Source of the DNA: an uncultured bacterium
GTDB taxonomy: Bacteria; Chlamydiota; Chlamydiia; Chlamydiales; JAJFMA01
Direction: 5' to 3'
DNA length: 64,000 nucleotides
NCBI GenBank assembly: GCA_964436955.1
Contig: CAYTFC010000002.1
Location: forward strand, 583 to 64,582
In this document: positions 24,716 to 30,191 of the stretch, piece by piece
Position numbering within the stretch: position 1 is the first letter of the stretch
Layout: each line of letters begins with the position of its first letter
Translations under genes and position numbers: made by a program
Notes under the pieces: model-generated
What the model saw: only the letters and a program-made list of their open reading frames with translations
Told to the model about the DNA's origin: nothing
The model's database searches: none

Positions 24716-26470
24716 TTAGTCTTCCAGTAACCGATAGAGTTTTTCGTAGATGCCTTTGAGTTGCACCAATTGACTGTGGGTTCCTTGCTCAGCGACTTTC
24801 CCCTGCGAAATGACTAAAATACGATGCGCATGTTGAATTGTAGAGAGGCGATGGGCTATGACGATAGCTGTTTTTTCGGAAAGAATTCTTAGCATGGCTT
24901 TCTGAATTTGGCGTTCGCTAGCACTATCAATATTGGCCGTTGCTTCATCCAAAATGTAAACGCTGCCATTATGCGCTGCGGCACGAGCAAAGGTGATGAG
25001 TTGTTGCTCTCCTGCAGAAAGACCGTTACCATTCCCCGATATTTTTTGTTTTTCATCCAGATTAGCTAGGTTCAGGTATTCCATAGCCTGCTTGGTGCTT
25101 TTGGATGCGTGCATAGAAATGTTTTGTTCTATCGTTCCGCTAAAGAGAGTGGGATCTTGCGGAATCACGCTAAATTGCTGACGAAGCGATGAACGTTGAT
25201 AGGTACGAATATCTCGTCCATTAATCCGAATTGCACCTTTTTGGATATCGTAGAAACGAAGTAAGAGATTTAAAATGGTGGTCTTGCCTGCTCCTGTAGT
25301 GCCTACAATGGCTAAGGACTCTCCCTTTTTTACAAAAAATGTGAGTCCGCGCAAAATCCAGTGATCGTTTTGATAGGCAAACCACACATCATCAAATTCG
25401 ATGGTATAGATAGCGTCGAGCGGTTCTCCTTGTTGGTAATCTTCACGCTCGCGATCGAGAATGTCAAAAATGCGTTCTCCCGCAGCCATTGCGGCTTGCA
25501 GCACATTATAGCGTTCGGCTAGATCGGCAATAGGACGAAAGACCATCAGTGCATAAAGGCTAAAGGTGAAAAACAGGCCTGCATCAAAGACTCCAGGAAT
25601 TACTGTAAAGGCCACTAAGATGGCAAAAATCATGATTAGCACGAAATTGTGCACAAACTGAATGCCGGAGGTAAATACGGCTAAATGGTGAATGCTCTCT
25701 AGGTTAACTGAGCAGTGATCATCATTGATTTCCTCAAACTCGGCTCTTTCACGTTTTTGTGAGCCAAAAACACGAATGGTTGAGACTCCTAGCAGGCGTT
25801 CTTGTACGAATGAATTAAGGCCGGAAACAATGGCTCGAAGAAGTTCAAAACAACGTCTCTGATTTTTCCTAAATTGGTGTGTTTGCCACCACAAGATGGG
25901 AATGACAAAAAGGCAAATTAGCGCGACTTGCCAACTTAAAAAGCCTACTGCAATAACGATACCAGATAAAAGAAGAAAATTTCCCATTATGGGGACAATG
26001 CTTTCGCTATAGAGCTGGTTAATCTGGTCTACATCAGAAATGGTTCGGCTCATCAGACGTCCGACGGACTGATGATCGAAAAAGGAAACTGGCATCTTTT
26101 GAACGGCGTCATACATTTCTGTGCGCATCGATAACAAGGCGCGCTGACCTACCCAGTTTTTGATTAGGACGTTGGCCGCCTCCAGCATATAGCCTATGAT
26201 CAGCATGGCACCTAGTCCAAGAACCCAATTAAAGAGATGCGAAGGGGTTACATCGCTTGAGGATACTAATATTTCGGAAGTGAGTTTTCCCACGAAGACA
26301 GGAACCGCAATTTCAACACTCTTTGCCAGAACCATGAGGACGACGGATAGGATGACATAGCCTTTATAGGGCTGTAAATAGCTAAAGAGGCGCTTCAGAA
26401 GTTCATAATCAATAGTGTTTGAGTGCACTTTTTCACGTTCATAGGTACGATGATAGGGAGGTATTTTCAT
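24716..26470 (-). CDS. ABC exporter, fused permease/ATPase (MsbA/MdlB type)
   Basis: Six-TM domain plus Walker A GTTGAGKTT, signature LSAGEQQ and Walker B YILDEAT. Confidence 0.9.
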   Translation of the reverse strand: MKIPPYHRTYEREKVHSNTIDYELLKRLFSYLQPYKGYVILSVVLMVLAKSVEIAVPVFVGKLTSEILVSSSDVTPSHLFNWVLGLGAMLIIGYMLEAANVLIKNWVGQRALLSMRTEMYDAVQKMPVSFFDHQSVGRLMSRTISDVDQINQLYSESIVPIMGNFLLLSGIVIAVGFLSWQVALICLFVIPILWWQTHQFRKNQRRCFELLRAIVSGLNSFVQERLLGVSTIRVFGSQKRERAEFEEINDDHCSVNLESIHHLAVFTSGIQFVHNFVLIMIFAILVAFTVIPGVFDAGLFFTFSLYALMVFRPIADLAERYNVLQAAMAAGERIFDILDREREDYQQGEPLDAIYTIEFDDVWFAYQNDHWILRGLTFFVKKGESLAIVGTTGAGKTTILNLLLRFYDIQKGAIRINGRDIRTYQRSSLRQQFSVIPQDPTLFSGTIEQNISMHASKSTKQAMEYLNLANLDEKQKISGNGNGLSAGEQQLITFARAAAHNGSVYILDEATANIDSASERQIQKAMLRILSEKTAIVIAHRLSTIQHAHRILVISQGKVAEQGTHSQLVQLKGIYEKLYRLLED

Positions 26471-28281
26471 ATTTCCTCCGCTTTTTCTAATGACTGTAGT
26501 TCTACTAATGCCGCGTAACGTCCTTCAAGAGCCATCAGCTCATCATGTGTGCCATCTTCAACAACTGATCCTTGGTTCATGTACAAAATGCGATCCATCT
26601 GACGCAATATTGGCGCTCTGTGAGTGACTAACAGCACTGTTTTGTCAGCGAATTGCTCACGCATGTTGGCGAAAATACGTCTCTCTGTAGCTGTATCTAC
26701 GGCGCTAAAGATATCGTCTAAGAGTAATATTGACCGCCCTGATAGAAAAGCTCTGGCTATAGCTACGCGTTGCTTTTGGCCTCCCGAAAGACGAACGCCA
26801 CGTTCTCCTACTACTGTGTCATATTGACTTGGAAAGAGGATGACGCTCTCATGGAGGTCGGCAAGACGTGCCACCGCCTCAATATCTTCCAGAGTAGCGG
26901 TTTCCAGAGACATTCCCACATTTTCGGCAACGCTTTTAGAAAACAGGAATGGAGACTGTTCTACAACTCCCATTCCTCGATGCAGCTCGGTGAGGGAATA
27001 ATCGTGGATATCTCTTCCGCCTAGAATGATAGTGCCTGCAGGAATCTCATATTCCCGATTGAGCAAGCGTAAAAGAGTAGTTTTTCCTGAAGCGATTGGG
27101 CCAGTGATACCGACAAAGGAGCCTCCACGTATTGTGAGGGAGATATCCTTGAGGACCATACGGTTGGTGGATGCATAGGCAAAAGAAAGATTATGAAAGG
27201 CGATATCTGCTTGAGGTGGTAGAACAGGACTATGTTTGGGGCCTTCTTGCACTTCCATGGGCGCTTCATAGATTTTCACGATGCGATCGTAAGCAGCACT
27301 ACCGCGTTGGTAGATTGGTAGTACCCATCCTAGCATGAGAACAGGGCCATAAATGGAGGCCTGAATCCACATAAATGAGACAAAATCTGCACCGGAGAGA
27401 TGCACCCAACCATACCAGGTGCTATAGCCTGTAAAAAGCACCAGGCAAATGGTAACCGCACGTGTGAGGAAGGTCAAAAAGGGGAAAAATAAACCGCGCA
27501 AAGCAGATAGCCAGAGATTGGCGTTAAAAAAACGAATGCCCAAGTTGTCAAAGCCTTGGAGGGAGGTCGGTTCGTTAGCCATAGCTTTGATTAGGCGACT
27601 GGCGGAGAAGTGTTCTTGTGCGAAGGTGCTCATGTCACCAAGGATTTCTTGGACCTCTCTGGAACGTTGATAGACCTTGCGTTGAGTTAAAAGAATGGAA
27701 ATGGGGATCACAAGGATTGGCAGAATAGATACTGCCGTCATGACAAGTGAAATGCTCGCCAAAGCAATCAATGCAGGAATAACTAATGTGATGAAGTAGA
27801 GTGGATACATGATGCCAGGCCCAAGGACTTCGCGATAAGCCGCGATGTCATTAGTGAGGATACTCATCAGATCGCCAATGTGGTGGCTATCATAAAAGGC
27901 GCGTGATTGCATTTGAAGTCGGTCGAATAGTTGAGAACGTACATGTCGTTCGACGTCACGGCTAACGGCCACAAACTCGACGCGCATGCGATATTGAAAT
28001 AGAGCAGAGGCGAGGGCCACAGAAATCAGAAGAATAACCCAAACAGTAAGACTTTGAGCATACGGGCCAAGAAAATTGGAGATCATGAGGGCAAGGCCAT
28101 GGCCGCTTTCGTCGGCCTGCATGTGCATGGAGAGGATGGCTTGGCGAAATAGAAGGGGATTAAAGACGAGCAGGCAGTTGGCCGCTAGAACCATTAAGAA
28201 GGCGAAGCTAAGGCGCTTTAGGTAGCGCCTTGTGATGCCCATCAAATTATGGTAGAGACCCTTCTCCATTGCTATTCCCAA
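26467..28281 (-). CDS. ABC exporter, fused permease/ATPase (partner half-transporter)
   Basis: Walker A GPIASGKTT, signature LSGGQKQR, Walker B LLLDDIFS. Has a 4-nt overlap with the downstream gene. Confidence 0.9.
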   Translation of the reverse strand: MGIAMEKGLYHNLMGITRRYLKRLSFAFLMVLAANCLLVFNPLLFRQAILSMHMQADESGHGLALMISNFLGPYAQSLTVWVILLISVALASALFQYRMRVEFVAVSRDVERHVRSQLFDRLQMQSRAFYDSHHIGDLMSILTNDIAAYREVLGPGIMYPLYFITLVIPALIALASISLVMTAVSILPILVIPISILLTQRKVYQRSREVQEILGDMSTFAQEHFSASRLIKAMANEPTSLQGFDNLGIRFFNANLWLSALRGLFFPFLTFLTRAVTICLVLFTGYSTWYGWVHLSGADFVSFMWIQASIYGPVLMLGWVLPIYQRGSAAYDRIVKIYEAPMEVQEGPKHSPVLPPQADIAFHNLSFAYASTNRMVLKDISLTIRGGSFVGITGPIASGKTTLLRLLNREYEIPAGTIILGGRDIHDYSLTELHRGMGVVEQSPFLFSKSVAENVGMSLETATLEDIEAVARLADLHESVILFPSQYDTVVGERGVRLSGGQKQRVAIARAFLSGRSILLLDDIFSAVDTATERRIFANMREQFADKTVLLVTHRAPILRQMDRILYMNQGSVVEDGTHDELMALEGRYAALVELQSLEKAEEI

Positions 28282-28300
28282 GTCTCAGTTTTATTTTTTG

Positions 28301-28520
28301 GGATTTTTACCACAGAGGCACAGAGACACTGAGAAGGACCTGCGGTTAAGAGACCGGTTTTAGGAAGTCCTCAGGCCTTGAGAGGCCTGGAGACCCAGCT
28401 CATTTAACTGTTAAACTGAGGCTATTTTTTCTGGCCTCTCAAGGCCAGAAAAAGTCCCCAAAGCCGCTCTCTCTACCGCAGGTCCTTCTCAGTGTCTCTG
28501 TGCCTCTGTGGTAAAAATCC
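28301..28520. repeat. 220-nt near-palindromic, MITE-like element with perfect 46-bp terminal inverted repeats
   Basis: 28301-28346 (ggatttttaccacagaggcacagagacactgagaaggacctgcggt) is the exact reverse complement of 28475-28520. Inner arms are also complementary (ggccttgagaggcc / ggcctctcaaggcc). Confidence 0.8.
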
Positions 28521-28541
28521 TAAAAAAGCAAAATACGTTTT

Positions 28542-30191
28542 CTATAAAAGCTGTTTCACAATGTCATCCGGGATGATTTGCCTAAACAGGACCTGCTGAA
28601 TTTTAGCTACATCTGGGTTATCCTGGGAAGGGGTTGCTTCCACAGCACGATACCAAATGCCTATATACGGCTTGTTTAGAGCCTTTGCAGCTTTTGCCAT
28701 TCCCTCAACGTTCTTTTTCTTATCATCAATGAAAATAATTCTATCGAATTCCACAGGATGCTGTGCTAAAAATTGTACAAGAACATCCGCTTTATCGTTC
28801 TGTAATCCAGCGAAAACCACACCATCGATGTACTTAGCTGGAGAAACTGTAAATAACGTAAAGTCTTCAGTAGCCACATCACTGCGGCTAAAATCAATAA
28901 AAATATCTCGCAGTGCTTTAAGGGTTGTATGGGCCATTTCGATGTAGCGCGCTGTCAGACCCATGGTCTTGACACCCCGCTGCTGCAGTGTTTGCAAAAC
29001 GTTAGCGGTATTTGGCTCTACAGGCCTCACAGGTGTGCGAATCAGCACTTGATGCCAGAAGGGAACCAAACGATCGAGAACTTGCTCTTTTGATAGGCCT
29101 GCAGCCATGGCGTCTTTGGTGACCTTGTCTGCCCATACGTCGCCACCTAATGCACTATCCGTCCGCATGAGGGTGTCGTTGAGGTCGAACACTACGAGCG
29201 TCTTTTCATCCGCTAGAGATAACAGGTCCGTGATCTGCGTGCTTTCTCTAATTTCGATTGGGACATCATGACTAGTTAGTTGTGGAGGTTTAGAATGACT
29301 TCCGCCGGTTAAAGTACTGTCGATTCTAGAAGGATGTAAAATAGGATCTTTGTACTTTGCCAGCAAGCTTACGGCTTGTGGCATTGTAAGGATGCGGGCT
29401 GCTATAGCATCAGGAATCACCTTGTCCATATACTTTAGCTGATAGTCCGCAATCTCCATACGGAAATGGCTAAAGGCGGAGTCCTCTCCACTAAAGCGTA
29501 GGCCTATATACTCCAGACCGCGCTCTAAAGCAAAGTCGTGCACATGGGTGACGTTGTAGCCTCGATCGTCTGCAAATACGATTTTCGTAATCTTATTGTC
29601 GATCTGATCCAAAAACTGGGCAAGAACGATATCTTTCTTATTGCAATCGTGAGCGAAGATAACGCCTTGATAGAATGCGACTGGATATTTCGTAGTGAAA
29701 GTGAAGGTGTTGTCTGACCAAGGGTTCTGGCCGAAATCGATATTGATGCTATTCAAACTGTCAATAGTTGCTGGGGCCAAAATAGCCTGGCGTGCTGTCA
29801 ATGCGATCACACCACATGCTTTGGCTTTCCATTCGTTAATCAGTTCTGGTAAGCAAGCTTGGCACGGTTCTACAGTAGTAAATCGCTGTGTGGGAACAAA
29901 GTCATGATAGCCTTCATTGACACTCGTGTACTTATCTTTGCCTTGTTTAACTCCATTTTCTACGAGATGCCAAAACCATTGGCAGCTACCTAGTGAAGTT
30001 GTGGCGCGAAAGGTTGTGCTGTCAAGGTCCAATACCACGAGGGTATTTGCGTCGATATGTGTGTTAAGTACACGGAAATCATCGCCGTCGATGACTATCG
30101 TTTTAGGTGCTGAAGCTTCGGAAGTAGCTGGAACCAGAAGGAGTAGTCCGCAAAGGACTAAACCAAGAATTCGTCTAATATGAGTTTGCAT
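28542..30191 (-). CDS. Secreted protein with two tandem HAD-superfamily-like domains
   Basis: Signal peptide (LLLLVPATSEASA). Domain 1 has motif I VVLDLDSTTF (DxDxT) and FADDRGYN. Domain 2 has VVFDLNDTLM (DxNxT) and FIDDKKKN. Both have a conserved LTAR block. Confidence 0.6.
   Translation of the reverse strand: MQTHIRRILGLVLCGLLLLVPATSEASAPKTIVIDGDDFRVLNTHIDANTLVVLDLDSTTFRATTSLGSCQWFWHLVENGVKQGKDKYTSVNEGYHDFVPTQRFTTVEPCQACLPELINEWKAKACGVIALTARQAILAPATIDSLNSINIDFGQNPWSDNTFTFTTKYPVAFYQGVIFAHDCNKKDIVLAQFLDQIDNKITKIVFADDRGYNVTHVHDFALERGLEYIGLRFSGEDSAFSHFRMEIADYQLKYMDKVIPDAIAARILTMPQAVSLLAKYKDPILHPSRIDSTLTGGSHSKPPQLTSHDVPIEIRESTQITDLLSLADEKTLVVFDLNDTLMRTDSALGGDVWADKVTKDAMAAGLSKEQVLDRLVPFWHQVLIRTPVRPVEPNTANVLQTLQQRGVKTMGLTARYIEMAHTTLKALRDIFIDFSRSDVATEDFTLFTVSPAKYIDGVVFAGLQNDKADVLVQFLAQHPVEFDRIIFIDDKKKNVEGMAKAAKALNKPYIGIWYRAVEATPSQDNPDVAKIQQVLFRQIIPDDIVKQLL

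Follow-up and report, generated by a model that had tools for sequence, protein, structure and literature searches.

The window, a stretch of 64,000 nt analysed as a whole, corresponds to positions 583-64582 of contig C2 in a genome (G000) of 3.05 Mb on 149 contigs. Between a gene for a DUF2608 (HAD-like) protein and the first of a pair of ABC exporter genes, it contains a palindrome of 244 nt (28289-28532; Table 1). The DUF2608 stop at 28542 is 9 nt from this element, and the probable exporter ATG at 28269 is 19 nt from its other end. A repeat search gave arms of 76 nt with 89% complementarity (28289-28364 and 28457-28532). Within these arms lie the two segments that a first-pass annotation of this DNA had described as an exact inverted repeat (28301-28346 and 28475-28520), and indeed 46 of the 46 bases were reverse-complementary. 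The self-complementarity that had been noticed in the inner sequence was recovered as inner inverted repeats in the same search, and the symmetry, said to be prolonged by T-rich and A-rich flanks, was found to include an outer T-run and A-run. The 29-nt core of the arm occurred at two places only in the window, namely in both arms, and at none in 100 shuffles.

Table 1. Features of the palindromic element and its flanking genes (positions in the window)
Feature	Position	Strand	Evidence or remark
Whole palindromic element, gene-less family member	28289..28532	.	76-nt arms at 89%; 100% self-hit; 93% identity to C3:36704-36942
Left perfect arm, 46 nt: outer module GGATTTTTACC, three heptamers, then AAGGACCTGCGG	28301..28346	+	exact reverse complement of 28475-28520
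Right perfect arm, 46 nt	28475..28520	-	exact reverse complement of 28301-28346
Left heptamer array CACAGAG-G-CACAGAG-A-CACTGAG, CNCNNAG at 8-nt period	28311..28333	+	
Right heptamer array, mirror of left array	28488..28510	-	
Inner hairpin B (GGAAGTCCTCAGGCC-TTGAGA-GGCCTGGAGACCC)	28363..28396	.	loop conserved, stem co-varies; helix 7, 14 pairs, 4 with compensatory change
AT-rich centre (AGCTCATTTAACTGTTAAACTGAGGCT)	28397..28423	.	gene-carrying copy has promoter region and nuclease gene at the homologous place
Inner hairpin A (TTTTTTCTGGCC-TCTCAA-GGCCAGAAAAA)	28425..28453	.	helix 6, 12 pairs, 5 with compensatory change; inverted repeat found
Upstream gene: secreted two-domain DUF2608 (HAD-like) protein, 549 aa	28542..30191	-	Pfam PF11019, E 8.5e-78
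Downstream gene: ABC exporter, first of a pair	26467..28269	-	Pfam ABC_membrane and ABC_tran

The RNA of the element was predicted to fold at -167 kcal/mol for the minus strand and -166 kcal/mol for the plus strand (z approximately -19), and the single-stranded DNA at -98 kcal/mol. A search of positions 27900-28900 against Rfam 15 in E-value mode returned chance microRNA-precursor matches only (27 bits vs the gathering score of 80 bits). An assembly artefact in the form of a fold-back chimera was considered, as the perfect 46-nt arms exceed common k-mer sizes and the contigs of an independent Logan assembly (run SRR5855237) break there. Two contigs of that assembly, however, each hold one flank-arm junction of the element and end inside the two arms, so the junctions, recovered independently, are not an artefact of the present assembly. 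Twelve other copies with the same architecture and diverged sequence are located on other contigs, and a chimera can practically be dismissed.

The first-pass annotation had placed the element between the HAD-like stop at 28542, which was confirmed, and an exporter start at 28281. The ATG at 28269 appears more likely to be the start than the TTG at 28281, since relatives begin with a homologous MEK... and a called gene with a 600-aa product has been recorded. With this start the two genes are 272 nt apart, and 244 nt of this spacer are taken up by the element. In a member of the same genus (G002), the DUF2608 TAG and the exporter ATG are 9 nt apart, and in a member of another genus of the family (G004) the spacer is approximately 21 nt. 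Empty sites, named earlier as a check on the nature of the palindrome, are thus present in both relatives. The difference between these spacers and the 272 nt found here identifies the element as an insertion, and the comparison showed that it entered a very short operon spacer after the species split from its sequenced congeners. Two other members of the genus (G003 and G001; loci L042 and L043) have no DUF2608 gene and carry RseP (M50 protease) directly upstream of the exporter, indicating that the DUF2608 gene itself is variable in this operon.

Further copies, also named as a check, were found when the whole genome was searched by BLAST. The element matched 40 merged places, 13 of which were full-length with paired heptamer arms 148-162 nt apart, and approximately 27 were short or broken relatives. 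The nearest copy, on C3 (Table 1), lies upstream of sctJ. Common to all copies is an outer module, T5-6-AGGATTTTTA(C/A)C, the pattern of which was present at 50 ends in the genome vs 0.3 expected. In the arms, the outer TTTTTTAGGATTTTTACC module flanks arrays of 2-4 heptamers at an 8-nt period; these are of the CACAGAG type or the CGCAAAG type depending on the copy, and the type is always identical on both arms of one copy. The window element has two inverted CNCNNAG arrays of three heptamers each at period 8. The core of the family runs in the order GGACCTGCGG, hairpin A, AT-rich centre, hairpin B, and CCGCAGGTCC, and a set of shorter hairpins (58-140 nt) has the same outer module with other interiors. 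The arm sequence was present in 13 of 39 relatives. The interior modules were found in none of these 39, which indicates that the interior is private to this species. Being short (244 nt), non-coding, multi-copy and bounded by terminal inverted repeats of 46-76 nt, the element has the form of a MITE.

At C33:26169-26589, two left ends of the family were observed 161 nt apart, both preceded by the same outside flank of approximately 26 nt (ctctgcaagacgtYgatattccatag); this doublet is a local tandem duplication that includes flanking DNA.

Orthologous sites of eleven other copies were sought with a pooled flank query, and four sites were comparable. The C24 site was empty in congener G001 (spacer of approximately 10 nt) and the C16 site was empty in congener G002; those of C3, C93, C25, and C49 were not comparable, the synteny being broken or the flank not found. 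MAFFT alignments of filled against empty sites (approximately 70% identity) were too noisy to place the breakpoints to the base. At the site of the C10 copy (C10:6660-6885), G002 holds a solo CACAGAG-type arm, CTCTGTGATCTCTGTGTACTCTGTGGTTAAATCCTAAT (G002:C1:1421053-1421959, L161). This solo arm and the full CGCAAAG-type C10 element both end in the odd TTAAATCCTA, which suggests either an old occupied site with heptamers changed in place or repeated use of the site.

The genome has only one match to PF13366 (GxxExxY, PDDEXK_3), located at C49:2602-2952 on the minus strand (E = 1.3e-36). This nuclease gene is enclosed by C49:2416-2540 and C49:3056-3215, which are family halves in inverted order and had come up as partial copies in the BLAST search, and the cassette as a whole (C49:2406-3215), situated between convergent genes, has the arms and approximately 100 nt of inner modules per side in common with the gene-less copies. 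Read in the direction of the gene, it starts with the outer module, CGCAAAG heptamers, GGACCTGCGG, hairpin A, and ...GGGTCTCCA, continues with an AT-rich leader containing a ribosome-binding site and the nuclease gene, and ends with ...hairpin A', CCGCAGGTCC, heptamers, and the outer module. Over approximately 145 nt, gene-less copies match the left half of the cassette at 84-86% identity and break off exactly at the gene borders; those on C88, C25, and C93 align at 85-86% to cassette positions 36-41 to 185 and resume at 691-725. From this jump in the alignment, the gene-less element equals the cassette minus the 500-540 nt or so holding the gene, and the relation of a gene-less copy to the C49 cassette is, by these alignments, that of a MITE to its parent. 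Family DNA makes up approximately 0.2% of the genome, and chance placement of the sole PF13366 gene between two inverted halves is very unlikely, on an estimate from coverage rather than a computed statistic.

The protein encoded in C49 keeps the G-x-x-E-x-x-Y motif, D67, and E77-x-K79, and its model (pLDDT 93.5) has a Cas4/RecB-like nuclease fold. Weak fold matches were Cas4 SSO0001, the AdnAB nuclease domains, and Hjc-type resolvases (E at least 0.007), and a sequence search of the PDB gave no match. The conserved C-terminal KRIVNAL-stop of the gene (C49:2488-2958, minus strand) is found in the +1 frame, preceded by an A-run around C49:2595-2600, and the frame in use adds 43 residues into the repeat. 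The only potential source of the enzyme in this genome is therefore damaged at its end.

For structural comparison, 12 full copies were aligned (793 cells in 68 pairs). A single RNA hairpin of about 100 bp had been predicted for the window element in the first-pass annotation; the consensus fold of the 12 copies consists instead of a 39-pair outer stem and two inner hairpins. Standard pairs accounted for 97.1% of the 793 cells, and 23 of the 68 pairs were changed on both sides. Double-changed cells numbered 69, vs 22.1 ± 4.6 in shuffles (0 of 500 reached 69) and 6-18 in controls with the partner slid by 1-3 columns. Variants private to one copy were mirrored on both arms in C16 (CACGGAG-G-CGCTGAG-GAGG), C22 (GAACAGAGAGG), and C33 (GGGGGAATAAGG); this is unlike terminal repeats that drift independently and points to selection for pairing or to arm-to-arm copying. 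Positions C1, C3, A6, and G7 of the two inner heptamers were invariant in the 12 copies (C.C..AG), as was the loop of hairpin B (CTCTCAA), while the complementary loop of hairpin A varied in a few. The alignment showed that pairing of the arms and of the two inner hairpins has evidently been kept through compensatory changes, with four of the seven heptamer positions and the loops fixed. Such fixed letters within a co-varying helix suggest a protein that would read both shape and sequence. Read in the sense orientation of the nuclease gene, the alignment had 51 cells of the G:U type and 14 of the A:C type (G:U above A:C in 10 of the 12 copies); as part of this excess is inherited, it amounts to no more than a hint at a strand-specific single-stranded form.

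All 12 gene-less full copies were intergenic and 0-20 nt from neighbouring stop codons, the neighbouring genes being convergent in 7 cases, co-directional in 4, and divergent in 1. A scan of 28270-28541 for promoters and terminators revealed no such site in the window element. On both strands a T-run precedes the stems and an A-run follows them, a polarity which is the reverse of that of a bidirectional terminator and which may explain the tolerance of copies inside operons. An intrinsic bidirectional terminator was rejected on both grounds, and the strong transcriptional insulator proposed in the first-pass annotation likewise found no support. Target-site duplications were sought around 14 elements at offsets of 0-23 nt and lengths of 2-8 nt; no direct repeat at any given offset and length was seen in more than one element, and none was seen in the empty and filled C24 pair.

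The genome has an RNase III gene (C71:11850-12239). In analogy to Correia elements (PMC2649163) and the intervening sequences of rRNA (PMC4990558), a read-through transcript from the HAD-like gene to the ABC exporter, with its stem of at least 39 bp, would be a likely substrate for this enzyme, and cleavage could uncouple the two messages. Together with the intergenic positions close to stop codons, the seven copies between convergent genes, the compensatory pairing, and the G:U excess in one orientation, this enzyme would fit a palindrome maintained by the host for a structural or regulatory function (REP/BIME-like or Correia-like), with the link to the nuclease being secondary; similar heptamer sites in Geobacter metallireducens have been read as binding sites of a global regulator (PMC2700814). 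We regard such a function as unlikely, however, because the operon does not need the element (the spacer is 9-21 nt in the two relatives without it), the co-directional copies are oriented 2:2 with respect to host transcription with no terminator or promoter pattern, and the interior is private to the species while the arms travel with the nuclease gene across phyla. For the window locus itself, we infer no dedicated function of the element.

The genome contains several other kinds of mobile elements. Y1 (HUH) transposase genes, three or four in number, were observed at C22:23216-23557, C54:8535-8873, C77:78-422, and C54:485-718, accompanied by REP-like hairpins such as CCACGGGTGTAAACCCGTGG and by a tandem array of TGCCTCGGCGAGGCA units. 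These chlamydial loci may be RAYT/REP systems, distinct from the heptamer family. A REPIN-type element that depends for its movement on such a transposase (RAYT, IS200/IS605-like) would share with the palindrome the hairpin-forming sequence, the extragenic location, and the lack of a target duplication. The hairpins beside each Y1 gene are short, GC-rich, REP-like, and particular to that gene, and the heptamer family, whose arms bracket the GxxExxY gene instead, flanks none of the Y1 genes; this origin is therefore considered very improbable.

An abundant insertion sequence with short derivatives (IS5-like) was also observed, with ends CCCTGATTGCTACCAAAAC (or ...CCCAATG) and flanks that are almost always CT[ACT]AGA (CTNAGA). 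Examples are C26:8258-8558, C3:20676, and C65:5150-5187, and positions around 13395 and 47929 of the window (C2:13977 and C2:48511); most of the 149 contigs end approximately 48 nt inside this element. With a genome full of insertion sequences, a small multi-copy element with terminal inverted repeats might have arisen as a classical MITE from a DDE insertion sequence such as this one. The ends of the IS5-like element (CCCTGATTGCTACC...) are unrelated to those of the palindrome, no target duplication was seen, and rather than sharing the heptamers the IS5-like element inserts into them, so that a derivation of this kind is hardly credible. Such insertions were observed in several family copies, probably because CTGAG/CTCAG fits the target of the IS5-like element, which by its position is a later invader and not the parent of the palindrome family. 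A second insertion-sequence end (ATAATGGACCCCTAAAACTGGACACCCCACTTTGCGCG) interrupts three family copies (C100:9655-9720, C49:1-62, and C38:27348-27416) and coincides with contig ends. A parent insertion sequence with a transposase between the same ends as the palindrome was rejected, as the only gene found there is that of the PD-(D/E)XK nuclease, and no IS110-type recombinase (PF01548; such elements target palindromes) was present in the genome.

The search for GxxExxY loci was extended to other genomes. PF13366 was detected in 65 genomes of a Chlamydiota sample of 200 and in none of the 28 genomes of family f36, and the chlamydial matches were often broken or at contig ends. For the arm test, 27 complete chlamydial loci were picked by protein alone. 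Inverted heptamer arms were detected at 11 of them in a strict array test, vs 3 of 1000 random places, and inspection of the longest flanking inverted repeats by eye raised the number to at least 15. A locus of the same genus (on G003:C17) has TTTTTTTTTACCACAGAGACACAGAGGCACAGAG arms around its nuclease gene (G003:C17:9762-10106). A cross-phylum set of 78 complete loci from approximately 15 phyla was found by protein profile; 45 of these were flanked by an inverted repeat 20 nt or longer, and 47 by one of at least 16 nt with two or more periodic heptamers (0 of 500 at random), leaving approximately 40% of the loci without arms in the same test. The heptamer words at these loci (CACAGAG, CGCAAAG, CGCAGAG, CACGGAG, and CACGAAG) have the same skeleton as in the window element. 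Thus, full-length relatives with the same arms on both sides of a PF13366 gene occur in C49 and among the chlamydial and cross-phylum loci. When mapped on the tree of the nuclease proteins, heptamer type required 29 changes, vs 31.8 in 300 shuffles (minimum 27); it did not track the tree, indicating that heptamer type changes quickly, and the test gave no evidence for lineage-specific heptamer recognition by the nucleases.

With a probability of roughly 0.7, the window palindrome belongs to a family of hairpin-armed GxxExxY nuclease cassettes, as a MITE-like, non-coding member with an internal deletion. The full-length cassette carries a gene for a PD-(D/E)XK nuclease of approximately 125 aa between inverted CNCNNAG arrays, and this gene would have been lost in the window element. 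Copies may have spread through a single-stranded or cruciform hairpin intermediate on which the nuclease acted in trans; the spread could alternatively be due to homing or to recombination between copies, with no target duplication. Instead of mobilising the copies, the nuclease could also be their cargo. Activity of the family in this genome has probably ceased, given a frameshift at the C-terminus of the sole nuclease gene and an identity of no more than 93% even between the two most similar copies; no act of transposition was seen.

Among the three readings offered in the first-pass annotation, the candidate MITE comes closest. The multiple copies, the empty sites in two relatives, and the longer gene-carrying relative in the genome agree with it; the lack of a target-site duplication, a nuclease that is not a known transposase, and the mirrored copy-private arm changes do not. 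The recombination hotspot found no support.

It is a tentative proposal, to which we give somewhat less than even odds, that these loci represent an undescribed class of mobile cassettes spanning phyla, with the window element as a non-autonomous member; the nuclease, the sole protein of the cassettes, would read the heptamer arrays on a strand-specific hairpin or cruciform and drive copying, by transposition or by homing into gene-less hairpins, without target duplication. If true, this would be a hairpin-repeat and enzyme system analogous to REPIN/RAYT with a different enzyme fold, and it would provide the first function for GxxExxY (PF13366), a large orphan family present in many phyla whose function is listed as unknown (PMC3424549). 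Heptamer-arm hairpins, too, have been noted in genomes without being explained, as in Geobacter, where they were taken for regulator sites. The present genome is a compact natural set, with one gene-carrying cassette, about a dozen gene-less derivatives, and empty sites in relatives, and the function of GxxExxY becomes a bench question with defined DNA substrates. For annotation purposes, the 272 nt that separate the DUF2608 gene from the exporter are debris of a mobile element and not a regulatory region of the operon. The window locus is ordinary debris of this kind, and the cassette class is barely described and experimentally approachable.

In the literature searched, the arm sequences were not found in any paper, and no paper joined heptamer arms to a GxxExxY nuclease gene. 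A related pattern has been reported in Geobacter metallireducens, which has 21 opposite-strand site pairs, each of three tandem TCTCCGTS[Y] repeats, named 'class 2 predicted global regulator binding sites' (Aklujkar et al. 2009, PMC2700814); TCTCCGTS[Y] is the complement of the CACGGAG-type heptamers. The heptamer-armed GxxExxY class at large is similar to the window family in its inverted arrays of three CNCNNAG heptamers at an 8-9 nt period around a variable interior, in a full form that brackets the PD-(D/E)XK gene of approximately 125 aa, and in gene-less copies located in intergenic spacers. The window family differs from it by the extra conserved outer module TTTTTTAGGATTTTTACC and by private inner modules of approximately 100 nt per side with two fixed-loop hairpins.

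The intervening sequences in 23S rRNA of Coxiella burnetii (PMC4990558), also known from Leptospira and others, likewise hold a small ORF within complementary termini. In C. burnetii, a stem of approximately 28 bp is cut by RNase III, and a mobile origin has been proposed but never shown (PMC4990558). They differ in being located in rRNA and in encoding an S23p four-helix bundle (PF05635), whereas the window copy lies between protein-coding genes and has no ORF; a search of the genome for PF05635 gave no match. Correia elements of Neisseria (CREE/NEMIS, PMC2649163) resemble the window family in size (100-250 nt), in their long inverted repeats, and in their location between co-transcribed genes; their transcripts form folded structures that RNase III can bind or cleave (PMC2649163). 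A parent transposase is known neither for them nor for the window family. Unlike Correia elements, which carry IHF sites and outward promoters and have TA target duplications, the window family showed none of these features. The REP/REPIN and RAYT systems of Proteobacteria are different in the enzyme, which is a Y1 HUH transposase there and a PD-(D/E)XK nuclease here, and in the arms, which consist of a GC-rich palindrome of 20-35 nt there and of periodic heptamer arrays here. Both are extragenic hairpin repeats without target duplication, and both have a single-copy enzyme gene flanked by the same repeats in inverted order. By analogy to the REPIN/RAYT case, the window family may work as non-autonomous hairpins together with one domesticated or selfish enzyme.
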